A stretch of 64,000 bases of DNA, from assembly GCA_040753955.1 (NCBI GenBank), contig JBFMDQ010000001.1, positions 44,668-108,667 of the forward strand. The letters run 5' to 3'. Each line of letters begins with the position of its first letter. The first letter of the stretch is position 1. Below, in pieces: positions 3,502-44,428 of the stretch. The stretch comes from Nitrospirota bacterium. Lineage in GTDB: Bacteria > Nitrospirota > Thermodesulfovibrionia > Thermodesulfovibrionales > SM23-35. The notes under the pieces are model-generated. The model searched no databases, had not been told where the DNA came from, and was given only the letters and a program-made list of their open reading frames with translations. The translations under genes were made by a program, and so were the position numbers.

Positions 3502-4638
3502 GTGATAACTTCACCACTGAGGGACATATTCAGGATTAATCTCGGTGTAAAAAAACACGAGAGGGTTCTTCTATTTACTGACAGGCCTTCAGAAGAGGAG
3601 ATAGATGAATCAGATAAAGAGCGAAGGTTGAAGTTAAGATGTCTCTCTATATTTGCTGCCGAGATAGGCAAGAATTTCTGTAAGACAGTCCTGTTCCATG
3701 AGTATCCTGCTACAGGCAGTCATGGCGCAGAACCACCAGAAGAACTCTGGGAACCTGCCTTCGGGAGGAAGGCGGTTAAGGCCTTAAAGAAAGAGGGGCT
3801 CCTTCTTCCTATTCTTATGAAGGATGTAAAGGATAGTGATATGAAAAGGGCAGAAGACATCATCAGAAGGCATAAAAATAATGCCGTGAACTGTGTGATT
3901 GCCCTTTCAAATTATTCCACGAGCCATACGAGTTTCAGGGATTTCCTGACAAGGATTTGCGGCTGCCGATATGCGAGCATGCCTCTCTTTGATATCTCGA
4001 TGCTCGAGTGTGCCATGAATGTTGACTGGAAGGCCCTCGCAAAAAGGACGAGAGGGCTTGCAAGGGAAGTAAACAAGGCTGAGTTTATAGAAGTAAAGAC
4101 CTTAAATGGCTCCTACATCTCTTTCTCAAAAAGGGGAAGGAGGGCAAAATCGGATACAGGGATTCTTACAAGACCAGGCTCTTTTGGCAACCTTCCAGCG
4201 GGTGAGGTCTTCCTCGCACCCTTAGAAGGGACAGCCAAAGGCAGACTCATCCTCGAGTGGGCTTCAACAAGGCGGCTTAAATCTCCCATAACCCTTACTG
4301 TTAAGGACGGCTATGTCGTGGATATTGAGGGTGAAGATGAGTATGCTGAATATCTTAGAGCAAAACTTTATGGAAAGAAAGAAAATGGAAACATTGCCGA
4401 GTTTGGCATAGGCACGAATGACCATGCAACGAGGCCGAACAATATCCTTGAGTCAGAAAAGATCCTTGGAACCATACATATAGCCCTCGGCGACAACAGC
4501 TCCTTTGGCGGAAAAATCAAAACACCTTTTCATCAGGACTTCGTTTTTTTTAAGCCAACGGTGAAATTAATTCATAAGGATAGTAGCAAAAATACTATTC
4601 TTAAGTCGGGTAGACTCCTCTGCAGGGAGTGTATATGA
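3502..4638 (+). CDS. aminopeptidase, M29 (AmpS/PepS)-like
   Basis: 378-aa ORF with M29-like metal-ligand regions EFGIGTN, HIALGDN and HQDFVF. It starts 7 nt after purF and overlaps the mqnD start (ATGA). Confidence 0.6.
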   Translation: MITSPLRDIFRINLGVKKHERVLLFTDRPSEEEIDESDKERRLKLRCLSIFAAEIGKNFCKTVLFHEYPATGSHGAEPPEELWEPAFGRKAVKALKKEGLLLPILMKDVKDSDMKRAEDIIRRHKNNAVNCVIALSNYSTSHTSFRDFLTRICGCRYASMPLFDISMLECAMNVDWKALAKRTRGLAREVNKAEFIEVKTLNGSYISFSKRGRRAKSDTGILTRPGSFGNLPAGEVFLAPLEGTAKGRLILEWASTRRLKSPITLTVKDGYVVDIEGEDEYAEYLRAKLYGKKENGNIAEFGIGTNDHATRPNNILESEKILGTIHIALGDNSSFGGKIKTPFHQDFVFFKPTVKLIHKDSSKNTILKSGRLLCRECI

Positions 4639-5522
4639 GAACCCTTTCCCTCGGCTATTCACCATGCCCCAATGATACTTTTATATTCTATGCCCTCGTC
4701 CGCGGGAAAATCGATACAGAGGATATAGGTTTCAAAGAGGCCCTGCTGGATGTTGAGACCCTTAATCAGATGGCTTTGTGCTCCGAACTCGATATTACAA
4801 AGATTTCATATCATGCCTTCGGCCATCTCCGTGAAGACTACTGCCTCCTCCGCTCTGGGAGCGCAATAGGCAGAGGCTGTGGGCCTCTGGTAGTTGCAAA
4901 GGAGGACTACACCGTGAAGGACTTAAGGGAGAAAAGGACAGCAATCCCTGGCAGGCTTACAACGGCAAATCTGCTTTTACAGCTATTTTCTTCAACCTTC
5001 AACCTTCAATCTTCAAATTCCCCCTTACCCCCCTTTACTAAAGGGGGGCAGGGGGGGATTATCGAAATGCCATTTAGTAAGATTATGGATGCAGTTGTGA
5101 AGGGAGATGTGGACGCAGGACTGATAATCCATGAAGGAAGATTTACCTATCCTTCTTACGGCTTGAAGAAAGTTTTAGACCTCGGCGAGTGGTGGGAGAA
5201 TGATACAGGGTTACCTGTACCCCTCGGCGGTGTACTTGCTAAGAGGAATCTGGGAAAAGACCTGATAAAGAGGGCCGATTCAGTTATAGGAAAGAGTATT
5301 GAGTATGCATTTAAACATAGGGATGAGCCAAAGTTCTATATAAAACAGCATTCCCAGGAACTCGAAGAGGAAGTGATAGAGCAGCATATAAATTTATATG
5401 TGAATGATTATTCTTTAGATATTGGTGAGGAAGGGTTATCAGCCGTTAGAGAGCTTCTCAGAAAGGCGGAAATGAGAGGAATTATCAAAGAATCGAGGAA
5501 TGAGTTTTTATGCGTTACGTAA
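4635..5522 (+). CDS. mqnD: 1,4-dihydroxy-6-naphthoate synthase (futalosine pathway)
   Basis: N-terminus RTLSLGYSPCPNDTFIFYAL..LDVETLN..DITKISYHAF is typical of MqnD (VitK2_biosynth family). ATG 4635 follows GGGAG. The gene carries a repeat-derived in-frame insertion at 4991-5060. Confidence 0.8.
   Translation: MRTLSLGYSPCPNDTFIFYALVRGKIDTEDIGFKEALLDVETLNQMALCSELDITKISYHAFGHLREDYCLLRSGSAIGRGCGPLVVAKEDYTVKDLREKRTAIPGRLTTANLLLQLFSSTFNLQSSNSPLPPFTKGGQGGIIEMPFSKIMDAVVKGDVDAGLIIHEGRFTYPSYGLKKVLDLGEWWENDTGLPVPLGGVLAKRNLGKDLIKRADSVIGKSIEYAFKHRDEPKFYIKQHSQELEEEVIEQHINLYVNDYSLDIGEEGLSAVRELLRKAEMRGIIKESRNEFLCVT
4991..5060. repeat. composite repeat inside mqnD: 4 x heptamer TTCAAYC (4991-5018) plus C-run/G-run hairpin element (5017-5060)
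   Basis: ttcaacc ttcaacc ttcaatc ttcaaat, followed by attcccccttacccccctttactaaaggggggcagggggggatt (imperfect palindrome). Read in frame as STFNLQSSNSPLPPFTKGGQGGI. Confidence 0.85.
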
Positions 5523-7390
5523 TCCTCGGGACTGCAGGCCACATAGATCATGGTAAGAGTGCCCTCGTAAAGGCCCTGACAGGAATAGACCCTGACAGAC
5601 TTAAGGAGGAGAAGGAGAGGGGTATCACGATTGACCTCGGTTTTGCAGACCTCAGTTATCCTGATGGCCTTACTATTGGGATCGTCGATGTGCCGGGACA
5701 TGAGAGGCTCGTCAGGAACATGCTTGCAGGTGCAGGCGGGATAGACCTCGTGCTTCTCGTGATTGCCGCTGATGAAGGTATCATGCCACAGAGTCGCGAG
5801 CATTTATATATATGTGATCTTCTGAAGATCAAATCAGGTCTCATTGCGATCACAAAGGCAGATCTTGTAGAGAATGAATGGCTTGAACTTATGAAGGATG
5901 AAGTGAGGGACTTTGTAAAAGATACATTCCTCGAGGAGGCACCGATAGTGCCTGTTTCATCAAAAACGATGTTTAATATAGATCTCCTTAAAAAAGAGAT
6001 AAGAGGTGGAGCATTAAGGGTCGAACCGAAGCCAGCGAAAGGTCTTTTCAGGCTTCCCATAGATAGGGTTTTTACGCTAAAGGGATTTGGAACTGTTGTT
6101 ACAGGGACTGCTTTATCTGGTAGCATTTCCGTTGACGATGCTGTGGAAATACTTCCGAGCAATATCAAGAGCAGGGTTCGCGGGCTCCACAGCCATGGCA
6201 GACCCATACAAACGGCGTATGCAGGGCAGAGGGTTGCGATAAATCTTCAGGGAGTCGAGAAAGAGGAATTGAAAAGGGGAGATTCTGTTGTCATGCCAGG
6301 AAGACTTATTCCTACAAAGACGATTGATGCAAAGATAGAACTCCTCCGGGATGCGCCAGCCCTTAAGCGTAAAGACCCTGTCCATCTCCATCTCGGCACA
6401 TCGGAGACCATTGCAAGGGTTATCCTCTACGGCAGGGATGAACTCAAACCAGGCGGTAGTTGCTACTGCCAGTTCAGGCTTCAAGATGCAGTTATATCCA
6501 TGTCTGGAGACAGATATATCATAAGGAGGTTTTCCCCCGTCGAGACAATTGGTGGAGGGGAAGTCTTCGACCCTTCTCCACCGAGGAGGAGACATAGGGA
6601 AGGGGCTGAAGCCCTGATAGCATTTGAGAAAGGTAGCCTTAATGATAAGATTTCTTTAAAGGTACAACAGTCAGGGCTTTACGGTATTTCTACAATGGCT
6701 ATTGAGGGGTGGATAAAGGCTGAAACACTTTTAATAAAAGAATCTATAGAGATACTCAGAAGAAAGGGGATCCTGCTAAATGTAGAAGATGTACTTATTC
6801 ACAAGACCTTTTTCGATTCTTTCAGGGAAAAGGTTCTTCAGACCCTGAAGGATTTCCATGCGAAAAACCCTTTGAAACCCGGAATGCCTAAAGAGGAACT
6901 CAGAGCCACACTAAATATAGGACCTAGACTTTTCACTGGACTGATCACATCCCTCAAAGATGTTGTTATGGAGAGGGAGATAATCCGTCTCGGTACCTTC
7001 AGTACAATCTTATCCCAAGCAGAGGAGACACTGAAGGCTAAGATACTGGAGCTCCTGCAGGAAAATGGATTTCAACCTCCGACTAAGGAAGAATTGGCTC
7101 AATCTCTCAAGCTGGATCAGAAACATCTATCAGATATCTTGAAACTCATGGTGAAAGAGGGGAGTCTCGTGAGAATTAGTGATTCCATGTATTTGACTAC
7201 CACTGTCTATAATAAGATGATCGAGACCCTCAAAAATTTTTTCAGCAAAAAGTCTGAAATGACGGTAGCAGAATTCAGAGACATCCTCGGTACAACAAGA
7301 AAGTATGCCCTTCCCTTTTTGGAATACCTTGATTCAAACAAGATTACACTCAGGGTTGGGGATATAAGGAAGCTCCTGCTCAGGTTCTAA
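5510..7390 (+). CDS. selB: selenocysteine-specific translation elongation factor
   Basis: 626-aa ORF with G domain [21 protein letters not shown], an EF-Tu-like domain II, and a long C-terminal winged-helix extension typical of SelB. Overlaps the mqnD stop. Confidence 0.9.
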
Positions 7391-9956: not shown

Positions 9957-10934
9957 TTATGAATCTTGTATCGTGTTTCCCTCTTGCACAGGGGTTTGAG
10001 GTATGGAACCTTCAACAACAGACTCGCTAGGTATTCCTGTGGAGTAGTAGTATGTGAATATGATAGCAATAACCGCAAGACCGATGTAGGTCTGAAAGGC
10101 ATAAGAGATTAGCTGATATGGAAAAGAAAGGACTATACCTATTACAGGTACCAACTTGAAGGGATAGCCGAGGAGGATCAGGAGAAAACTTATCAGGACA
10201 TATCCTCCGAAAAGGAGGGTATAAAGCCAGAATGCCCTCGGGTGCCTCACCACATAATTTATAGCCTCCTTGAGGGATTTCACAGGGCCTATACCTTTAA
10301 TGGAGAGTGCAGCAACTCCATACATGGTTATCGAGAGGATTCCGAGAAGGAGGGTGAGTGCAATTATTATCAAGATAAGAGAAAAAAAGGTACCGAGGAA
10401 GAGGGCAAGCGTTGAATCCTGACTTTTAACGAAGGATACTAATGCTGTTACGCCTCCCCCAAAGATTCCGAGAACAAAGGCGGTAGCAATCAGTATAATG
10501 CCTATCACGGCGGTAAAACCAAGCATCGGTAGAAAAAGCCTTTTTGCTTCAGAGAAGAATATGTTCATGGTAAATTTTGGAGTTTTGTCTCTGAGGGCCC
10601 TTCCGATAACACCGATAGAACCCCCAAATACATAAATGGTGAATATCGCAGCTATAAGGATGTACATCAGGAGGCCCGCGATAACGATAAGGACAAGCCC
10701 GAAATACTTAGATATGATTTCAGAAGGCTCCTTAAGCAATTTGAAGATATCTTTTATATTTGTAATTTCTGTAAGGTCAATGCCGAATATGATAAATGCT
10801 ATCGCAAGTGGTATGCCTACTAAGACAAAAAAACCGATACCGCTTAAGATCACCATGCCGAGCTGGACGAGCACAAGCTGCCAGTTCCTGTGAACCACCC
10901 TGAATCCTTCCTTTATAGCATCGATGTAACTCAT
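9957..10934 (-). CDS. polytopic membrane protein, unknown function
   Basis: ORF 9957-10976 contains about 7 hydrophobic helices. ATG at 10934 (MSYIDAIKEGF) is preferred because AGGAA lies 5 nt upstream. Confidence 0.6.
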   Translation of the reverse strand: MSYIDAIKEGFRVVHRNWQLVLVQLGMVILSGIGFFVLVGIPLAIAFIIFGIDLTEITNIKDIFKLLKEPSEIISKYFGLVLIVIAGLLMYILIAAIFTIYVFGGSIGVIGRALRDKTPKFTMNIFFSEAKRLFLPMLGFTAVIGIILIATAFVLGIFGGGVTALVSFVKSQDSTLALFLGTFFSLILIIIALTLLLGILSITMYGVAALSIKGIGPVKSLKEAINYVVRHPRAFWLYTLLFGGYVLISFLLILLGYPFKLVPVIGIVLSFPYQLISYAFQTYIGLAVIAIIFTYYYSTGIPSESVVEGSIPQTPVQEGNTIQDS

Positions 10935-11056
10935 GTTGATTCCTGTTATTGTAAGATAAATTCTCACCTTTATCAAAGAGCTATTAGCAAAAGAGACATC
11001 AATCGGTCACGACAACGATGCCCGTCTCGGTGACGTTAAACGGTAACGTGAAAAAC

Positions 11057-14126: not shown

Positions 14127-14198
14127 CGTAATGCGTTATGCGTGATGCGCAATGAGCTAACAAGCTGGACTTATCACGCATTACGGGTTACGCATAAC
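14127..14198. repeat. two inverted heptamer arrays (CGTAATG family)
   Basis: cgtaatg cgttatg cgtgatg cgcaatg (14127-14154) faces tatcacg cattacg ggttacg cataacg (14172-14199 region), forming a long imperfect hairpin right after secF. Confidence 0.75.
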
Positions 14199-14205
14199 GA
14201 ATTTT

Positions 14206-15957
14206 ATGCATAGGCGATGGCTTGTCAACAGAACCAACCCGGAATATATAGAATATTTGTCAAAAATTGCATCCATTTCCCCTGTTCTGGCTCAAATATT
14301 GATAAACAGGGGAATAAAGACGCCTCACGAGATATATGATTTCCTTAACCCGAGGATATCAAATCTCTCAGACCCCTTCGAGCTTGTAGGCTTAAAGACT
14401 GCTGTTGAAAGAATAAAAGAGGCGTTGAAAAGAAGTGAAAGGGTCCTCGTCCACGGCGACTACGATGCAGATGGTCTCTCTGCTACAGCTATAGTATTTC
14501 TTGCCCTGAAAGGACTCGGATTAGATGTCCATTACTTTATCCCTCACAGGATTACCCATGGATATGGTTTTAGTTTTGCTGGTGTGAAAAGGGCGAAGGA
14601 ACTCGGAGTCGAGCTGGTAATTACAGTTGACTGCGGGATAACATCCTTTGAGGCGATAGCTCTATCGAAAAGAGAAGGAATAGATGTGATTGTAACCGAT
14701 CACCATGAACCAGCTCTTAATCAACAGTCCCTATTCGGAAATCACAATTATCTACTACCCGATGCCTTTGCTATTGTTAATCCTAAACTCTCGACCACTG
14801 ACTCTCGATCCTCGGTCTTATCAGGTGCGGGGGTCGCATTTAAGCTTGCCCAGGCATTATCAACGGTTCACGGTTCACGTCCGCCTATGGCGGACACGGT
14901 TCACGAATTTTTAGACCTCGCTGCTATCGGTACAATGGCTGATGTTGTTCCTATTATCGGTGAGAACAGGATTCTCGTAAAAGAGGGGTTGAAGTTGATA
15001 GAAAATGGTGCGAGGCCAGGCTTGAGGGCACTGAGGGAGGTTTCGGGCATTGATAAGAGAGAGACTAAGTCTGATGTGCTGCCGTTCACAATAATCCCGA
15101 GAATGAATGCAGCTGGCAGGATATCAGACGCTAACAATGTTGTAAAGCTCCTGCTTACTGATTCAGATGATGGGGCAGCCGAGATATCATTTTGGCTGGA
15201 TAAACTCAATTCAGAGAGACAGCAGATAGAGGAAGAGGTTTATCGGGAAGCCCTCGACAAGCTCAATGATAAAGGTGTCCGTTCAGCCATCGTGCTTTCA
15301 GGAGAGGGGTGGCATCAGGGTGTTATTGGCATTGTGGCATCTAAAATTACAGAGATTTTTTACAGACCTACCTTTGTTATTTCCAAAGGGGGAAACACTG
15401 CCACAGGTTCGGCAAGGAGCATCCCTCCCTTTGACATCTATAAAGGTCTAACAGGCTGCAGAGAACTCCTCACAGGCTTTGGCGGTCATAAACAGGCTGC
15501 AGGGTTTAGACTGAATACTGAGGATATTTCATCCTTCGAGGAAAGGATCAACAGGATTGTGGCTGAAAGCCTTACAGAGGAGGATTTTATACCTTCCCTC
15601 GAGATAGATGCAGATGTAAAACTCTCTCACATAAACTTAAGCCTTATAAGAGAGCTCGAGATGCTCGAACCCCTTGGATTTGGAAACACCGAGCCGCTCC
15701 TGGGTTCAAAAGGGCTCGAGGTTCTCTACCCGAGGGTGGTCGGGAATAATCACATCAAGATGAAACTCAGGCAGAGGTCCTACTCCATTGATGCCATAGG
15801 GTTTGATATGGCCGAATTTTTTGATACCCTATTGAATATAGCATCAAATTCAACAGGTTCAACCTTGATCGATGCTGCATTCACGCCATTCATAAATGAA
15901 TGGGAAGGAGGCAGGGGTCTCCAGCTAAACCTGAAGGCATTCAGGCCGAGCCTGTGA
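14206..15957 (+). CDS. recJ: single-stranded-DNA-specific exonuclease RecJ
   Basis: DHH motifs VHGDYDADG, DCG and VTDHHEP, plus a DHHA1 region GGHKQAAG. Confidence 0.9.
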   Translation: MHRRWLVNRTNPEYIEYLSKIASISPVLAQILINRGIKTPHEIYDFLNPRISNLSDPFELVGLKTAVERIKEALKRSERVLVHGDYDADGLSATAIVFLALKGLGLDVHYFIPHRITHGYGFSFAGVKRAKELGVELVITVDCGITSFEAIALSKREGIDVIVTDHHEPALNQQSLFGNHNYLLPDAFAIVNPKLSTTDSRSSVLSGAGVAFKLAQALSTVHGSRPPMADTVHEFLDLAAIGTMADVVPIIGENRILVKEGLKLIENGARPGLRALREVSGIDKRETKSDVLPFTIIPRMNAAGRISDANNVVKLLLTDSDDGAAEISFWLDKLNSERQQIEEEVYREALDKLNDKGVRSAIVLSGEGWHQGVIGIVASKITEIFYRPTFVISKGGNTATGSARSIPPFDIYKGLTGCRELLTGFGGHKQAAGFRLNTEDISSFEERINRIVAESLTEEDFIPSLEIDADVKLSHINLSLIRELEMLEPLGFGNTEPLLGSKGLEVLYPRVVGNNHIKMKLRQRSYSIDAIGFDMAEFFDTLLNIASNSTGSTLIDAAFTPFINEWEGGRGLQLNLKAFRPSL

Positions 15958-21222: not shown

Positions 21223-21446
21223 ACCCTGTTGTTGCATAAATTGTTATAACCGAATAGGCTAAACCCTGTTAGAAAAGATTTTCTAACAGGGTAAATCTAT
21301 TGATACCAAGCATCTATGTCATTTTTGAAAGTTATCACAGGATTTCACTTTTAGTGAGCTTTATGAATAAAGCCTAATTTGCTACAAACATAGAATTATC
21401 ACCATTTTATGAGTTTTGTGTGCATGTATTATTGCAACAACAGGGT
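21223..21446. repeat. 224-bp element bounded by a perfect 14-bp inverted repeat, with a central 14-bp-stem hairpin sharing the ACCCTGTT motif
   Basis: accctgttgttgca (21223-21236) pairs with tgcaacaacagggt (21433-21446). Inner hairpin: accctgttagaaaa-ga-ttttctaacagggt (21263-21292). It lies between the convergent pilX-like and feoB genes. Confidence 0.55.
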
Positions 21447-25233: not shown

Positions 25234-26319
25234 ATGTCAGACCTTAGATACTGGATTGCACTATCCATGCTACAAGATATAGGACCTATTGGGGCTAAGA
25301 AACTGCTCTCTGTATTTGGAACACCTGAAAGAATTTTCGATGCAGAGGTTGATGACCTCCTTTCTGTAGAAGGGATAGGGATAAACAAGGCAAAAAATAT
25401 AAAAGAATTTTCATCCTGGGAGGTTGTGGATAAAGAGGTTAAGGTCTTAGAGAAAAAGAGGATAAAGACTGTAAATCTCAATGGGTCTTCATATCCAGAA
25501 ATGCTCAGGGAAATAGATGATGCACCTGTTGTCATTTATATCAGGGGTGATATTCAGCCTCAGGATAGATATACAATAGCAATTGTCGGTTCACGCAAGC
25601 CTACCTCCTATGGGACATCTGTTGCAGAAAATATTTCAGAGGAGCTTGCATCCATGGGGTTTACTATCGTTAGCGGTATGGCAAGGGGCATTGATGCCAT
25701 ATCGCACAGGGGAGCGTTAAGAGCAGGCGGAAGGACCATTGCAGTGCTCGGATCAGGACTTGATGTACCTTATCCTCCAGAGAACAAGGGTTTGATGGAT
25801 AAAATTACAAACTCCGGTTATGTTATCAGTGAGTTTCCCTCTGGGACCCCTCCTGATAGAGAAAACTTTCCCCGGAGAAATAGACTGATAAGTGGCCTTT
25901 CTCTTGGTGTGCTCATAGTAGAGGCTACCTCTGACAGCGGCTCCCTGATCACGGCAGGATATGCCCTCGAACAGGGTAGAGAGGTCTTCGCGGTTCCTGG
26001 TAACATAACTTCATCTGCATCAGAAGGCACGAACGAACTGATCAAAAGAGGTGCGATACTCACACGGAAGGCGGAGGATATTGTTGAGGAGCTCGCACCC
26101 GTTTTGAAAGGATTTATAAGATCAAAAGAAAGGGCAAAGATAGAAGTTACGGAAGAAGAAAAGAACCTCTGTAACCTGCTCTCTGGAGAGCCAAAGCATG
26201 TAGATGACATCTCTCGGGAGAGTAGATTACCGGCATCAAAGGTACTCGGAATCCTTCTTAACTTAGAGATGAAAGGTGCTGTAAGGCAAACAACAGGGAA
26301 AGGGTTTTATCTGGTATGA
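25234..26319 (+). CDS. dprA: DNA processing protein DprA (Smf)
   Basis: IAIVGSRKPTSYG..SGMARGIDAISHRGAL..VVEA..SGSLITA Rossmann-like DprA core, with a C-terminal winged helix. Confidence 0.9.
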   Translation: MSDLRYWIALSMLQDIGPIGAKKLLSVFGTPERIFDAEVDDLLSVEGIGINKAKNIKEFSSWEVVDKEVKVLEKKRIKTVNLNGSSYPEMLREIDDAPVVIYIRGDIQPQDRYTIAIVGSRKPTSYGTSVAENISEELASMGFTIVSGMARGIDAISHRGALRAGGRTIAVLGSGLDVPYPPENKGLMDKITNSGYVISEFPSGTPPDRENFPRRNRLISGLSLGVLIVEATSDSGSLITAGYALEQGREVFAVPGNITSSASEGTNELIKRGAILTRKAEDIVEELAPVLKGFIRSKERAKIEVTEEEKNLCNLLSGEPKHVDDISRESRLPASKVLGILLNLEMKGAVRQTTGKGFYLV

Positions 26320-28688
26320 ACTCCTCGGGATCGAGTCGCAACGATCTTGTCATTGTTGAGTCACCTGCAAAGGCAAAGACCCTCCATAAGATACTCGGTA
26401 AGGGATTTGCAGTCAAGGCATCTATTGGTCATATAAAGGACCTTCCTGAGAAAGAGCTTGGGGTTGATGTGGAGAGTAACTTTAAGCCTCATTACGTTGT
26501 AATCCCTGGTAAAGAAAAAGTTATTAAGGAGCTTAAGAAGGCATCAAAAGAGGCTGATAAGATATTTCTTGCCCCCGACCCTGATAGGGAGGGAGAAGCA
26601 ATAGCATGGCATATTGCTTATGAAATCTCAAATATCATCCCGAAACAAGTTCGGGATCAAAATTTAAAAGGAAAGATACACAGGATTACCTTTAATGAAA
26701 TAACAGAGCGGGCTGTGCGAGAAGCAATAAAGAACCCTGGCAGGATAGATATGAACAAGGTCGAGGCCCAGCAGGCCCGGAGGATACTTGACAGGCTTGT
26801 CGGTTACGGACTCAGCCCCCTTCTATGGAAGAAGGTTAGGAAAGGCCTTAGCGCAGGGAGGGTACAGTCCGTTGCAGTAAAGCTGATTGTAGACAGAGAG
26901 CGAGAGATAAGGGCATTCAAACCCGAAGAATACTGGAGTATAAACGCAGAATTTGAAGGGTCTAAACCTCCCAGGTTCTGGGCAAGACTTTACAAGATAG
27001 ACTCCAGACTCCAGACTATAGGCTCCAGATTTTTGATACCCAATGAAAATACTGCAACGGCTATTGTTAATGACTTAAAAGACAGAGAGTTTGTACTGAG
27101 CAAAATAGAGCGCAAGCAGAGGAAGAGGATGCCTTATCCTCCCTTTATCACAAGCACTATACAGCAGGAAGCAGCAAGGAGACTGAGATTCCCGGCAAAA
27201 AAGACAATGATGATAGCACAGCAGCTCTACGAGGGAGTGGAACTTGCTGAAGAGGGTTCAGTGGGACTCATTACCTATATGAGAACAGACTCCTTCAGGG
27301 TTGCCCCTGATGCACAGGAGTGGGCGAGGGAATTCATCATGAGGGTTTATGGAAGAGATTACACACCTGAGAAACCTCCTGTTTATAAAACCAAAGGATC
27401 TGTACAGGATGCACATGAGGCGATAAGGCCGACATATCCTGAGAAAAGACCAGAGGATATAAAACAATTTCTTTCAAAAGACCAATATGCCCTTTATACG
27501 TTGATATGGAATCGGTTTATATCAAGCCAGATGGCACCAGCCCAGCTTGAACAAACGACCTTTACAATCAATACAAATCCCCCCTTACCCTCAAATAATC
27601 CCCCCACCCCCCCTTTAGTAAAGGGGGGCGAGGGGGGATTTGCCGAGTTCAGGGCATCAGGAACGGTAGTCCGTTTCGATGGCTTCATGGCCTTGTATAC
27701 AGAAGGAAGGGATGAGGCAGAAGAGGAAGAAGGACTGGCATTGCCTGCATTAAAAGAGGGGGAGACATTAACACTTCTAAATCTACAACCAAGACAGCAT
27801 TTCACACAGTCGTCACCACGTTATACGGAGGCGACACTCATTAAGGCCCTTGAGGAAAAAGGTATTGGTAGACCGAGCACCTATGCAACAATCCTCTCCA
27901 CCATCCAGGAGAGGAAATATGTCCATAAGACTGACGGCAAGTTTTCCCCCACAGAGCTTGGCATTGTTGTAAATGACTTTCTCGTTGAAAGATTCCCCGA
28001 ACTCATAGATGTGGATTTTACTGCAAAAATGGAAGATGAGCTTGACCGGATTGAAGACGGAAAGATAAGATGGGTAAAGGTTGTAAAGGATCTTTACAAC
28101 CCTTTCAGCCGTGACCTCACAGAGGCTATAAAAACTACAGGCAGGGTAAGACCAGAGGATATACCTACTGAAACCATATGCGAGGTGTGCGGCCTTCCCA
28201 TGGTCATAAGGTGGGGAAGACACGGAAGATTTCTGGCATGCTCTGGATTTCCAAAATGTAAAAATACAAAACCCATGGAAAGTCAGCAGTCAGCCGTCAG
28301 CAGTCAGCAGTCAAATGAGATATGTGATAAGTGTGGCTCACCTATGTTAATAAAGTCGGGGCGATATGGAAAATTCCTTGCCTGTTCAAGATATCCTGAG
28401 TGCAAAAATACAAGACCTCTGTCAACGGGTTTGAGATGTCCACAGGATGGAGGAGATATAGTAGAAAGGCATTCAAGAAAAGGGAAACCTTTCTGGAACT
28501 GTGGTAACTATCCAGCGTGCCAATTCGTTTTATGGAATAAACCTATACCCGGAAAATGTCTTCAGTGTGGTGCAGATTTCCTTCTTGAGAAAAGAGGTAA
28601 GGCAGGAAAGTTGATACATTTCTGCCATAATAAGAAATGCGGATACAAAGGGGAAGTAAAAGAGGAAGTGGTCGGCCATTTATTATAG
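26316..28688 (+). CDS. topA: DNA topoisomerase I
   Basis: Toprim LVIVESPAKAKT..DPDREGE, active-site Tyr region GLITYMRTDS, and four C-terminal Cys4 zinc ribbons. Carries two repeat-derived in-frame inserts (27576-27640, 28281-28315). Confidence 0.95.
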   Translation: MNSSGSSRNDLVIVESPAKAKTLHKILGKGFAVKASIGHIKDLPEKELGVDVESNFKPHYVVIPGKEKVIKELKKASKEADKIFLAPDPDREGEAIAWHIAYEISNIIPKQVRDQNLKGKIHRITFNEITERAVREAIKNPGRIDMNKVEAQQARRILDRLVGYGLSPLLWKKVRKGLSAGRVQSVAVKLIVDREREIRAFKPEEYWSINAEFEGSKPPRFWARLYKIDSRLQTIGSRFLIPNENTATAIVNDLKDREFVLSKIERKQRKRMPYPPFITSTIQQEAARRLRFPAKKTMMIAQQLYEGVELAEEGSVGLITYMRTDSFRVAPDAQEWAREFIMRVYGRDYTPEKPPVYKTKGSVQDAHEAIRPTYPEKRPEDIKQFLSKDQYALYTLIWNRFISSQMAPAQLEQTTFTINTNPPLPSNNPPTPPLVKGGEGGFAEFRASGTVVRFDGFMALYTEGRDEAEEEEGLALPALKEGETLTLLNLQPRQHFTQSSPRYTEATLIKALEEKGIGRPSTYATILSTIQERKYVHKTDGKFSPTELGIVVNDFLVERFPELIDVDFTAKMEDELDRIEDGKIRWVKVVKDLYNPFSRDLTEAIKTTGRVRPEDIPTETICEVCGLPMVIRWGRHGRFLACSGFPKCKNTKPMESQQSAVSSQQSNEICDKCGSPMLIKSGRYGKFLACSRYPECKNTRPLSTGLRCPQDGGDIVERHSRKGKPFWNCGNYPACQFVLWNKPIPGKCLQCGADFLLEKRGKAGKLIHFCHNKKCGYKGEVKEEVVGHLL
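27576..27640. repeat. C-run/G-run hairpin element inside topA (extra left arm)
   Basis: aaatccccccttaccc tcaaat aatcccccccaccccccctttagtaaaggggggcgaggggggatt. Read in frame as NPPLPSNNPPTPPLVKGGEGGF. Confidence 0.85.
28281..28315. repeat. heptamer tandem repeat inside topA (AGTCAGC x5)
   Basis: agtcagc agtcagc cgtcagc agtcagc agtcaaa. Read in frame as SQQSAVSSQQSN, between two zinc-ribbon modules. Confidence 0.85.
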
Positions 28689-33195: not shown

Positions 33196-33265
33196 TGTCA
33201 TTCCTGTGCAGGCAGGAATCCAGTCCCCTTACCATTTTCTGGATTCCCGCTTTCGCGGGAATGAC
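33196..33265. repeat. short copy of the GTCATTCC..GGAATCCAG palindromic element
   Basis: tgtcattcctgtgcaggcaggaatccag-16 nt-ctggattcccgctttcgcgggaatgac. The right arm is identical to that of the 16057-16175 copy. Confidence 0.75.
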
Positions 33266-35641: not shown

Positions 35642-36915
35642 AGGTCTTTGTAGCAGGACTCAATCATAAGACTGCTGATATTGATGTCAGGGAGAAAGTG
35701 GCATTCAATGGCTCCAGACTCGAAGATGGCCTGATAAGGTTCAAAGAACTCCCTGAGATTGAAGAGGTTTTGATACTATCTACCTGTAACAGGGTGGAAC
35801 TATATGCAAATGTGAGGGATACTTTAAAGGCATCTGAATCTATAAAGATTCTTCTATCAGAATTCCACAATATAAACAGGGAGTTGCTGGATAAAGCCGT
35901 CTATATCTATGATGATGTTAATGCAGTGAGACACATCTTCAGAGTTGCATCGAGCCTCGACTCCATGGTCATTGGTGAACCTCAAATCCTCGGGCAGTTG
36001 AAAAAGGCATTTGAGTTAGCCCTCGAGAAAAAGACTATGGGTATCCTTCTGAACAGACTGATGAAGAAGGCAATCTCTGTTGCCAAAAGGGTGAGGAGAG
36101 AAACAAGAATAGCTGAACACGCAGTCTCTGTGAGTTTTGCAGCTGCTGAACTCGCAAAGAAGATCTTTACTGATCTCTCAGGGAAGGTATTCATGCTTTT
36201 AGGTGCAGGCGAGATGGCTGAACTTGCAGCAAGGCATCTAATGAGCAGTGGCGTGAAGGAAGTTATTGTAGCAAACAGGAGATACGAGCGTGCCTGTGAG
36301 ATCGCAAAGGAATTCAACGGGAGACCTGTTAAGTTTGATGATTTTCTGCAGGAGATGGTACCCTCCGATATAGTCATCTGCTCAACAGGAGCCCAGAACT
36401 ATGTTTTGACAAAAAGCCAAGTACAGAAAGTGATGAAGGAGAGGAAGCAGAAGCCGGTCTTTATAATTGATATCTCCGTTCCGAGAAACGTTGACCCAGA
36501 AGTAAACGATTTGGACAATGTCTATCTTTACAATATTGATGACCTGCAGGGTATTGTTGATAAAAATAAATTTGAAAGGCAGAAAGAGGCGGAGAAGGCA
36601 GAAAAGATAGTTGAAGAAGAAATCGAGCCCTTTCTTAAGTGGCAATCCTCTCTCGACTCTGTACCAACCATTGTAGCCTTGAGGGAGAAGGCAGAGGAGA
36701 TTAAAAAGGAGGAGCTCGAGAAGCTTTTAAATAGGTTCCCTGATATGGAGGAAAAACAGAGAAAGGCTTCTGAATATATGGCTACTGCAATCGTCAATAA
36801 ACTCATCCATCAACCTACTGTGGCTCTGAAAGAGTACTCTGAAGATAGAGATCTTATGATAGCAGTGATAAAAAGGCTTTTTGCTATTGATGAAGAAAGG
36901 GATGAAGATAAATAA
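35638..36915 (+). CDS. hemA: glutamyl-tRNA reductase
   Basis: GLNHKTA..REK, catalytic-Cys motif STCNRVE, and NADPH site GAGEMA. ATGA overlap with the upstream gene. Confidence 0.95.
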   Translation: MKVFVAGLNHKTADIDVREKVAFNGSRLEDGLIRFKELPEIEEVLILSTCNRVELYANVRDTLKASESIKILLSEFHNINRELLDKAVYIYDDVNAVRHIFRVASSLDSMVIGEPQILGQLKKAFELALEKKTMGILLNRLMKKAISVAKRVRRETRIAEHAVSVSFAAAELAKKIFTDLSGKVFMLLGAGEMAELAARHLMSSGVKEVIVANRRYERACEIAKEFNGRPVKFDDFLQEMVPSDIVICSTGAQNYVLTKSQVQKVMKERKQKPVFIIDISVPRNVDPEVNDLDNVYLYNIDDLQGIVDKNKFERQKEAEKAEKIVEEEIEPFLKWQSSLDSVPTIVALREKAEEIKKEELEKLLNRFPDMEEKQRKASEYMATAIVNKLIHQPTVALKEYSEDRDLMIAVIKRLFAIDEERDEDK

Positions 36916-37891
36916 AATATCCATTGGTACACGGGGCAGCAAGCTCGCACTCCTTCAGGCAGAATGGGTAAAATCAGAGCTTCATAAGATACACCCGGAA
37001 ATCGAAATAAGGCTCATTAAAATAAAGACAACAGGAGACAAGATCCTTGATGTGCCACTGGCAAAGGTTGGGGGAAAGGGGCTTTTTGTTAAGGAGATAG
37101 AGGAAGCCCTTTTCAGGGGGGAAGTTGATATGGCAGCACACAGCATAAAGGATGTGCCAACGGTTCTCCCGGAAGGACTTCATATTGCCGCTATATGTAA
37201 AAGGGAAGACCCGAGGGATGCCTTAATATCGAAAATTCTAAATTCTAAATTCCAAATTCCAAATTTTAGGAGTCTACCTTCTGGTGCAACCATAGGAACA
37301 AGCAGTCTCAGGCGTTCATGTCAGTTGAGCCACATTAGACCAGATTTAAAAATTGTGCAGCTCAGGGGAAATCTCGATACGAGACTCAGGAAACTCGATG
37401 AAGGCCATTTTGATGCAATCATCGTAGCTGTTGCAGGTATAAAGAGGTCAGGATGGGCTGAAAGGATAACAGAAATCCTTGAACCCGAGATATGCCTTCC
37501 TGCAACAGGTCAGGGTGCTATAGGGATAGAGTGCAGGATTGATGATGAGGTCATGAATAATATAGTTGGAGCATTAGACCATAAAGAAACATCGATATGC
37601 GTGAGGGCCGAGAGGGCCTTTCTTAAGAGACTCGCAGGAGGATGTCAAGTGCCTATCGCTGCCTATGCACGGATAGTCAGACAGGAGTCAGGAGTCAAGA
37701 GTCAAGAGTCAAATGTAAATAATAACTTCTCACTTCTTATGGATGGTCTTGTAGGGAGTGTCACTGGTGATAAGATCGTAAGAGGCCGTATGGAAGGAAG
37801 GCCCGAAGAACCCGATGCCCTCGGCATCAAACTTGCTGGGGACTTGCTTGCACGAGGAGCGAAGGAGATACTTGCCGAGGTGTACGGGTGA
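36902..37891 (+). CDS. hemC: porphobilinogen deaminase (hydroxymethylbilane synthase)
   Basis: IGTRGSKLALLQA, GTSSLRR, and the cofactor-Cys region GGCQVPIAAY. The start is uncertain (36881, 36890 or 36902). Contains two heptamer-repeat inserts. Confidence 0.9.
   Translation: MKINKISIGTRGSKLALLQAEWVKSELHKIHPEIEIRLIKIKTTGDKILDVPLAKVGGKGLFVKEIEEALFRGEVDMAAHSIKDVPTVLPEGLHIAAICKREDPRDALISKILNSKFQIPNFRSLPSGATIGTSSLRRSCQLSHIRPDLKIVQLRGNLDTRLRKLDEGHFDAIIVAVAGIKRSGWAERITEILEPEICLPATGQGAIGIECRIDDEVMNNIVGALDHKETSICVRAERAFLKRLAGGCQVPIAAYARIVRQESGVKSQESNVNNNFSLLMDGLVGSVTGDKIVRGRMEGRPEEPDALGIKLAGDLLARGAKEILAEVYG
37233..37267. repeat. heptamer tandem repeat inside hemC (AAATTCY x5)
   Basis: aaattct aaattct aaattcc aaattcc aaatttt. 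Read in frame as (K)ILNSKFQIPNF. Confidence 0.85.
37674..37712. repeat. heptamer tandem repeat inside hemC (GAGTCAR x4 plus a degenerate unit)
   Basis: tagtcag acag gagtcag gagtcaa gagtcaa gagtcaa. Read in frame as VRQESGVKSQES. Confidence 0.85.
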
Positions 37892-43872: not shown

Positions 43873-44428
43873 CGACTCAAGAAAAATAAAGAAAATCCCC
43901 CCTTACCCCCCTTTAGCAAAGGGGGGGAGGGAGGATTATATATCTCAAAAAGAAGGGAAACTTCTTTCACTCCAAAAATTTGTCATCCTCGGAGTAGGTA
44001 ATCTTTTACTATCTGACGAAGGGGTTGGCGTTCACATAGCTAATGAACTTATGAAGATGGAACTGCCACCAGAGGTTTCGGTTGTTGAAGGTGGGACAAA
44101 TGGATTTCATCTCATCAATGTGATAACAGAAGCTGACAGACTCATCGTGATTGATGCTGTCAAAGGAGGTGGTGCTCCCGGTTCTATCTATCGTTTCGAC
44201 ATTAATGATGTCCGAAACTGCCCATCCGGTTTTAAGACATCAGTTCACCAGATCGGTATTTTAGAGGTCATAGATTTGTCAGGGCTGATCGGAAAGACCC
44301 CTCAAACCACAGTTATCGGTGTCGAACCTAAGTCTCTGGAGTTGGGAATGGAATTATCCCCCGAAATTAAGGCAAAGATTCCGAGGATTATTGAATTGAT
44401 ATTTGAAGAACTAAAAAAGTCAGGATAG
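43844..44428 (+). CDS. hydrogenase maturation endopeptidase (HyaD/HybD family)
   Basis: The conserved core starts near 43976 (KFVILGVGNLLLSDEGVGVHIANEL..VIDAV). No ATG/GTG/TTG lies between the repeat and the core. The nearest in-frame ATG is 43844, inside the large-subunit gene, and the ORF track starts at 43796. Confidence 0.8.
   Translation: MKSENSLSNSDSRKIKKIPPYPPLAKGGREDYISQKEGKLLSLQKFVILGVGNLLLSDEGVGVHIANELMKMELPPEVSVVEGGTNGFHLINVITEADRLIVIDAVKGGGAPGSIYRFDINDVRNCPSGFKTSVHQIGILEVIDLSGLIGKTPQTTVIGVEPKSLELGMELSPEIKAKIPRIIELIFEELKKSG
43894..43937. repeat. C-run/G-run hairpin element between the hydrogenase large subunit and protease genes
   Basis: aaatccccccttacccccctttagcaaagggggggagggaggatt. 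The frame of the downstream protease gene stays open through it (IPPYPPLAKGGRED). Confidence 0.85.

Follow-up and report, generated by a model that had tools for sequence, protein, structure and literature searches.

Two repeat classes in one loop: a heptamer array and a C6/G6 palindrome probably brought together by a permissive segment of MqnD in a Nitrospirota genome

The gene mqnD of a Nitrospirota bacterium (assembly GCA_040753955.1, contig JBFMDQ010000001.1, positions 44,668 to 108,667 of the forward strand; this whole stretch of 64,000 nucleotides is further called the window) contains a short array of heptamers that runs directly into a palindrome built of C and G runs. These two repeats are not one transposon. 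It is probable that they are unrelated and that a single permissive loop of the MqnD protein holds them both, the filled allele being inherited and also copied by short-patch recombination. According to the proposed course of events, a decaying four-unit heptamer array would fill the 14 codons that this loop ordinarily has, and a 45-nt palindrome, similar to repetitive extragenic palindromes (REPs) or to MITEs (miniature transposable elements with inverted repeats), would have added net 39 nt between ...CAAAT and ATT.... Since two frames of the palindrome are free of stops and read as Pro/Gly-rich peptide, a copy that fell into the loop in such a frame would be tolerated as a disordered Pro/Gly-rich excursion (PPxPP[FL]xKGGxGG), and enzyme activity is presumably kept. 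Selection would funnel each surviving insertion in mqnD into the same few codons, and the heptamers would neighbour the palindrome for this reason. The heptamer-plus-palindrome allele would then be inherited, and flanking mqnD homology would also allow it to be copied to other lineages. The features of the locus are as follows.

4635..5522, forward strand: intact coding sequence of mqnD (1,4-dihydroxy-6-naphthoate synthase), assigned by profile, homology and structure model.
4991..5018, forward strand: imperfect four-unit heptamer array TTCAACC/TTCAACC/TTCAATC/TTCAAAT, encoding STFNLQSSN, in loop codons that are also present in orthologues of the order.
5016..5060, forward strand: 45-nt C6/G6 palindrome (AAT...ATT) with the in-frame peptide NSPLPPFTKGGQGGI; the repeat family to which it belongs is widespread.
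5019..5057, forward strand: 39 nt gained net (13 codons, SPLPPFTKGGQGG) in comparison with orthologues that lack the palindrome and have a 14-aa loop.

The identity of the gene was established by several means. The open reading frame (ORF) 4635-5522 matches PF02621 over profile positions 1-251 of 252 (E = 1.6e-76; 257.6 bits against a curated cut-off of 26), and phmmer relates its product to Thermus TTHA1568 (2czl/3a3u; E = 1.2e-80) and to AF1704 of Archaeoglobus (E = 3.9e-55). An identical protein is annotated in a Nitrospirota metagenome-assembled genome (MAG), and the close relatives found by protein search are Thermodesulfovibrionales. The GLIIHE.RF motif, invariant across 120 MqnD sequences, is kept, and outside the loop the protein is typical and intact. 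The preliminary description, made from the letters alone, had taken the gene for an otherwise typical MqnD around an insert, and the PF02621, Thermus 2czl and fold matches bear this out.

The sequence reads as that description had it also in another respect: TTCAACC TTCAACC TTCAATC TTCAAAT abuts the palindrome inside mqnD, and the frame is intact. Only two adjacent units of the array are identical. The palindrome has the form AATTCCCCCTTACCCCCCTTTA-c-TAAAGGGGGGCAGGGGGGGATT, with two 22-nt arms that are 86% complementary, and the energy of its RNA fold is -34.8 kcal/mol, with z = -4.6 relative to shuffled sequences. Both repeats are in frame and give the peptide STFNLQSSNSPLPPFTKGGQGGI (wider context ...LFSSTFNLQSSNSPLPPFTKGGQGGIIEMPF...), and PLPPFTKGGQGG is part of the peptide predicted from the insert. 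What is added to the protein is, nevertheless, smaller than the about 23 codons claimed initially: the gap amounts to 18 residues against the two solved structures (Thermus, Archaeoglobus) and to only 13 against 282-aa orthologues from the same order. The loop between TTANLLLQL and MPF has 9-11 aa in most MqnD proteins, 13-14 aa in most Thermodesulfovibrionia (forms of 282-283 aa) and 27 aa, that is 14 + 13, in the window protein. When 5019-5057 was deleted in silico, ...TCAAAT was joined to ATTATC..., giving FSSTFNLQSSNIIE, a normal 14-aa loop that resembles YDSIFNIQYSNILV of P0113. Three units of TTCAACC translate to FNLQPST, and P0100 (locus L087), 67% identical to the window protein, carries FTSAFNLQPSTLFV, with the DNA reading CCTTTAA CCTTCAA CCTTCAA CCTTATT and the palindrome absent. 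The presence of the TTCAACC array without the palindrome in P0100 implies that the heptamers occupy ordinary loop codons and that the palindrome alone adds length. The claim that the heptamers add codons is thus not upheld, as compared with orthologues of the order, in which the loop has 14 aa without any palindrome. A similar segment in orthologues had been named in advance as an argument against an insert; the loop of 13-14 aa is indeed common in the order, yet the 13 codons of the palindrome are extra to it.

Where in the protein does this loop lie? The AlphaFold2 model of the window MqnD, built on an alignment of 120 sequences, reached a predicted local distance difference test (pLDDT) score of 89.6 and a predicted TM-score (pTM) of 0.88 (an earlier model from a 24-sequence alignment, with pLDDT of 49, was discarded), and its top Foldseek match is 2czl (TM 0.96, rmsd 2.0 Å). 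The insert is located between helix 110-121 and strand 141-144, and residues 126-139 constitute the sole segment of the model with pLDDT below 50. An alignment to the Thermus structure was suggested in the preliminary description as a check; the model has the insert in a helix-to-strand loop, and the fold is kept. In alpha/beta proteins of the periplasmic-binding-protein-like fold, the ligand cleft is formed by strand-to-helix loops. Judging from this topology, the helix-to-strand connection would face away from the cleft, and the model points to one insertion-tolerant surface loop in MqnD, comprising residues 122-140.

The same loop is an insertion hotspot, for at least five different repeat types occupy it across lineages. 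Among them are other heptamer units, i.e., TCAGCGG/TCAGCTC (TCAGCNN), TATCAGC, GAACTCC and CAGAACT, which give peptides with 7-residue periodicity such as LTPNSKLQTPNS, and other palindromes, i.e., CGCAAGGGGGAC..GTCCCCCTTGCG, TGCAGGGGAAAC..GTTTCCACTGCA and GTCATTCC..GGAATGAC; peptides of the GAYRNT type are also found. The GTCATTCC..GGAATGAC element recurs in the window at 33197-33265 (GTCATTCCTGTGCAGGCAGGAATCCAG / CTGGATTCCCGCTTTCGCGGGAATGAC), and P0118 has a member of this family in its MqnD loop, where the insert (L088, ~5146-5337) is in frame and is read as VIPRPP...SRLRTAGMT. Insertions are also nested within the cassette, as the heptamers together with the palindrome are called below. 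The hairpin loop of L001 holds a 102-nt element (~10405-10506) with terminal inverted repeats CCCGTTAGAAA...TTTCTAACGGGG and a flanking TTTAC duplication, which suggests that it may represent another small mobile family targeting hairpin loops; in L003 a second mini-palindrome is nested in the hairpin loop, and in L002 a small hairpin is nested within the heptamers. A lone hairpin at 21263-21292 of the window has arms, ACCCTGTTAGAAAA/TTTTCTAACAGGGT, that are nearly equal to those of the 102-nt element. A protein-database search for cassette alleles with the loop segment alone returned two irrelevant fragments.

The palindrome belongs to a family of its own, with the consensus AATC6-N(1-4)-C6-TTT-NNN-AAA-G6-N(1-4)-G6ATT (shared by the three copies of the window, by two of L013 and by one of L017) and a short form AATC6-N3-C6-TTTNNNAAA-G6-N3-G6ATT. 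It is a short, G+C-rich, imperfect repeat that is present in many copies, three of them in the window; counts for the window refer to its 64 kb, and the genome from which it comes is outside the GTDB representatives that were scanned. The G-run motif gave 11 matches in the window, with 1.65 expected, and these resolve into three full palindromes. Besides the copy in mqnD, they are:

27597..27640, forward strand: second palindrome copy, in frame in topoisomerase I (NNPPTPPLVKGGEGGF), at a gap relative to the TopA structure 6ozw.
43894..43937, forward strand: third palindrome copy, most likely intergenic, between the gene of a NiFe-hydrogenase large subunit (ends 43872) and that of a HycI-type maturation protease.

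A partial extra left arm stands near the topA palindrome (~27578-27592). Beyond the window, at least 120 metagenome contigs contain the 21-nt palindrome core, and most of the metagenome copies listed keep the same outer arms and the AAT/ATT ends. In the window and in most of these listed copies the palindrome ends with AATCCCCCC...GGGGGGATT, and no GTAG/CGTC tetranucleotide is present at the ends. Spacer lengths vary within the family, so the length of the palindrome is not always a multiple of 3. The third frame meets TAG or TAA at the hairpin loop, while the two stop-free frames read N-P-P-x-P-P-F-x-K-G-G-x-G-G-[FI] or I-P-P-x-P-P-L-x-K-G-G, with NPPxPP[FL]xKGGxGG[FI] as the consensus peptide within ORFs. 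ORFs of at least 600 nt contain 30 of the 89 evaluable copies (listed metagenome copies), compared with 61% of random 45-nt segments from the same contigs; the family is therefore depleted in genes, yet far from excluded from them. The scan of the window against Rfam matched only two tRNAs and no family at the palindrome, and the terminator scan of 4400-5700 gave no terminator-like site and no U-tract tail at the hairpin. A scan of viral contigs (IMG/VR) gave only five with the 21-nt core (L212-L216), and nothing in it pointed to a phage vector. No paper was found when the literature was searched for the palindrome sequence or its peptides, and the family is apparently undescribed so far. In some metagenome contigs (L175 58-160, L162 3121-3177) the core was seen in head-to-tail tandem arrays with a period of 36-39 nt.

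The heptamers are a class of a different kind, in which the period and not the unit is shared. Four strict period-7 arrays were counted in the window, against none in 30 dinucleotide shuffles, and tandem arrays of period 6 or 8-12 were not found in it; Tandem Repeats Finder detected at least six arrays with about four or more units. Related loci, 1.23 Mb in total, yielded 21 arrays of period 7 but at most two for periods 5, 6, 8 and 9. Each array of the window has its own unit, and TTCAACC (16 matches, 9.9 expected) is not a dispersed motif. Two other core genes carry arrays in frame:

26999..27029, forward strand: heptamer array AGACTCC, ~4.4 units, in frame in topA.
28281..28313, forward strand: heptamer array AGTCAGC, 4.7 units, in frame in topA (SQQSAVSSQQS).
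37233..37265, forward strand: heptamer array AAATTCY, 4.7 units, in frame in hemC, at a 6-aa gap relative to E. coli HemC.
37682..37712, forward strand: heptamer array GAGTCAR, ~4 units, in frame in hemC, at a 15-aa gap relative to E. coli HemC.

Together with the palindrome at 27597, topA (26316-28688) has three in-frame repeats, the heptamers being at 26999 and 28281, and hemC (36881-37891) has two in-frame arrays. Core enzymes of this genome thus appear to be repeatedly colonised by repeats. In other genes of related genomes the arrays turn over completely at ~94% identity, so that the heptamer class is dynamic, while the array of mqnD itself looks old and decaying. The arrays are probably made by polymerase slippage, a published hypothesis which we infer to hold here, as we infer a mobilisation mechanism for the palindrome. 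The literature searched for heptamer repeats in Nitrospirae yielded only general heptamer papers.

Several further observations were made on heptamers. Downstream of the secF stop (14122) the window has, at 14127-14200, an array CGTAATG/CGTTATG/CGTGATG/CGCAATG followed by the inverted complement CGCATTACGGGTTACGCATAACG, i.e., an intergenic hairpin made of heptamers. In L002 (2150-2300 and 2620-2700) and L211, which come from genomes ~94% identical, the N-terminal segments of a pilus-assembly protein and of a secretin are encoded by completely different heptamer arrays, and the segments, hydrophobic and signal-peptide-like, are thus exchanged as a whole among close relatives; in L211 the pilus-assembly and secretin genes, which are adjacent, have the near-identical segment LLLSLILNxAFLxFNSYA. 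Near mqnD of Desulfuromonadales MAGs there are long perfect heptamer arrays, GGTTCAA x16 and TCTTCTA x11 (sites L036 18308-18422, L051 2463-2538 and L022 1626-1669), which implies that the heptamer excess is not restricted to Nitrospirota.

How did the cassette come to be present in different lineages? It was found in three separate positions of the MqnD tree: in the window sequence together with P0002, in P0004 beside P0040, and in P0003 beside P0083 and P0033. The DNA comparison of L003 (P0004) with L210 (P0040), which is independent of this tree, revealed ~2.3 kb of identical sequence except for L003:1076-1253 and four positions at 1654-1658 near the 3′ end of mqnD. The tract 1076-1253 (~178 nt) comprises the heptamers and the palindrome together with ~30-45 nt on either side, where synonymous differences are scattered, and it is 81% identical to the window allele, compared with 75% for the remaining gene. 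The JGI samples from which L003 and L210 derive have neighbouring accession numbers. Because the sister taxa of P0004 and P0040 have a plain loop, P0004 is likely the recipient. Such a divergent tract with co-converted mqnD flanks speaks for homologous recombination rather than for transposition of a composite element, and it indicates that the cassette was spread by short-patch homologous recombination of an mqnD segment; the sole presence/absence pair for the cassette, L003 and L210, is this recombination tract. In the pair L002 and L211, sequences that are ~94% identical over 7 kb are only 36-52% identical at the MqnD loop. The initial idea that the repeats travel as a composite unit has therefore stood in part: they were moved jointly, as the three lineages and the L003/L210 tract attest, yet by recombination and not by composite transposition.

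The genes around mqnD are closely packed. Its start overlaps the stop of an upstream M29/NicX-like gene (ATGA) and its 3′ end overlaps the start of selB at 5510, forming a tight nicX-like/mqnD/selB arrangement. In the closest relative, L001, a radical-SAM gene (14374-15315) separates genes that in the window are direct neighbours (window 8906), and the similarity between the window and L001 stops beyond window position 10938.

Three points weigh against the explanation by a shared permissive loop. The mqnD tree is a neighbour-joining tree, made with the loop excluded and with no bootstrap. No filled site was found together with an empty counterpart lacking the palindrome alone, and a transposase was not looked for; the whole palindrome is an inverted repeat, and its AAT/ATT flanks could belong to the element itself or stem from a target AATATT. 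Finally, arrays and palindromes lie close to each other too often. A heptamer array is present within 45 nt of 9 of 129 palindromes (metagenome copies listed), as compared with 1.5-1.7 expected (P ~ 8e-5), and no excess near palindromes was seen for periods 5, 6 and 8-10. The adjacency is ~5-fold over the uniform expectation, and in five cases the gap is 0-2 nt, so that a direct mechanistic link is possible, albeit unlikely. The five abutting arrays (gap of at most 2 nt) are all in long ORFs, those of CarA, TatD, AroC, a NuoG/formate-dehydrogenase-like subunit and MurD, where the composites fall in linkers or in insertions relative to the profile, each with another unit.

The mechanistic coupling that these numbers bring to mind could take several forms: the strong hairpin stalls replication and provokes heptamer slippage at its base, the arrays serve as preferred insertion targets, or a 7-nt duplication (+1) is selected because it restores the frame after insertion of a palindrome whose length is not a multiple of 3, the last form drawing on the variable spacers and on palindrome lengths that are not always multiples of 3. 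The confinement of the excess to period 7, with 9 of 129 found and 1.7 expected, and the five contacts at 0-2 nt within long ORFs speak for such a coupling. Yet the shared permissive loop predicts confinement to genes by itself, as composites restricted to genes are expected if both repeats survive only in the same permissive codons; moreover, the array stands alone in L087, in the same loop arrays of other units are found with no palindrome, and most arrays genome-wide have no palindrome. We regard the coupling as unlikely. It is a little harder to believe that arrays and palindromes are products of one process which rewrites low-constraint coding segments (loops, linkers, signal peptides) in Thermodesulfovibrionia, the filled loop alleles then spreading in a homing-like manner by gene conversion with co-converted flanks, so that the mqnD cassette would be selfish rather than a passenger.

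It also seems improbable that the insert is a functional element, with the hairpin acting in the RNA or DNA of nicX-mqnD-selB (stability, pausing, binding) or with the Pro/Gly loop giving a new interaction. The stem has a very high stability, four lineages keep CCC and GGG codons though these are not the preferred Pro/Gly codons of the gene, and four-fold sites in the hairpin are identical in 34 of 40 comparisons among distant pairs, against 48% gene-wide. The last observation was taken for a time as selection on the hairpin, and this was withdrawn, for the recombined tract is younger than the remaining gene, which confounds conservation; the flanking four-fold sites of the tract are also ~64-71% identical (hand count on the alignment). 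Furthermore, the hairpin has neither an Rfam family nor a terminator tail, its family is present in unrelated genes and intergenic sites, and the hairpin loop tolerates nested insertions of 30-100 nt.

A composite mobile element, of which heptamers and palindrome would transpose as one block, would fit their fusion in mqnD, their joint presence in three lineages that the tree does not group and the recurrence of the in-frame architecture in CarA, TatD, AroC, the NuoG-like protein and MurD. A composite of fixed sequence is, however, largely refuted. The heptamer units adjacent to palindromes differ at every site (TTCAACC, GACGAGT, TTTTGGA, CTGACTY, GTGAATY, GCTGATT), 93% of palindromes (120 of 129, copies listed) have no nearby array, a TTCAACC array without palindrome exists in L087, and the two further palindromes of the window stand apart from its five further arrays; the varied units and the separate occurrence of both repeats argue against such an element. 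The transfer between lineages carries diverged mqnD flanks as well, a signature of homologous recombination, and we consider one-block transposition very unlikely.

Least credible of all is a contingency locus in which 7-nt slippage toggles mqnD and, by polarity, selB: 7 is not a multiple of 3, and the preliminary description was right in its arithmetic that slippage by one or two units would shift the frame, coding regions with heptanucleotide phase variation are known from other systems (neuO) and arrays of related genomes do turn over at ~94% identity, yet only two perfect adjacent units exist, four units with point changes only are kept in four of five alleles (the window, L001, L003 and L087, with DNA divergence of up to ~25%), the fifth allele, L002, has three units and a nested hairpin, the frame is intact in every allele seen, and mqnD, present in a single copy, is a core gene of biosynthesis within an operon whose genes overlap tightly, and these alleles give no sign of a slippage switch.

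The shared permissive loop thus probably accounts best for the mqnD insert, and several consequences may be drawn from it. The colonisation of core enzymes by short selfish repeats that are read in frame, of which Rickettsia is the best-known case, would now extend to free-living environmental Nitrospirota. The palindrome family may account for recurrent PPxPP[FL]xKGGxGG peptides, and together with heptamers for 7-residue-periodic segments, in MAG proteins. The repeats would mark insertion-tolerant loops in MqnD, TopA, HemC, AroC, MurD and CarA, and the pair P0004/P0040 illustrates, in nature, the movement of an insertion allele through short-patch recombination. The partial but significant association of arrays and palindromes within genes is a lead on the origin of the repeats.

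How do these repeats compare with systems already described? The neuO gene relies on long perfect tracts with documented copy-number polymorphism, whereas the mqnD array has four imperfect units in a conserved count. Heptanucleotide phase variation in the coding region of neuO of E. coli K1 (the topic of PMC13001214) is similar in that a 7-nt unit stands in an ORF and some copy numbers alone keep the frame. An excess of heptameric simple sequence repeats (SSRs), with the short tandemly repeated repetitive (STRR) sequences of cyanobacteria, mainly intergenic, was reported (Mrazek, 2007; Calothrix/Nostoc, as cited in PMC4692102). The present arrays share with them the period-7 specific excess, the many units per genome and the variation of length and sequence between close relatives, but differ by being in frame in core enzymes (MqnD, TopA, HemC) and signal peptides, with a 7-residue peptide periodicity. 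Intragenic GTAG/CGTC REPs were also described, a minority of which lies inside genes, notably those of replication and repair (Di Nocera et al., 2013, PMC3733652). The present family resembles them as a G+C-rich palindrome of 20-45 nt with many copies, often transcribed and in a minority intragenic (topA here), while it ends with AAT/ATT and has no GTAG or CGTC tag.

The closest likeness is to the Rickettsia palindromic elements (RPEs), in-frame selfish palindromes of ~100-150 bp in housekeeping genes (Ogata et al., 2000, 2002; as summarised in PMC10969869). As in RPEs, the palindrome is in frame in unrelated housekeeping genes (MqnD, TopA), where it gives an extra peptide at fold-compatible positions, and it is also intergenic. 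RPEs are restricted to Rickettsia and have another sequence, whereas the present element has 45 nt, C6/G6 runs and a Pro/Gly peptide, and its hosts are free-living Nitrospirota, with copies also in many environmental contigs; in contrast to the RPE account, MqnD documents insertions nested in the element and a spread of the filled allele by recombination. By this analogy the mqnD insert would resemble the intragenic selfish palindromes of Rickettsia, with no sign of a genetic switch.

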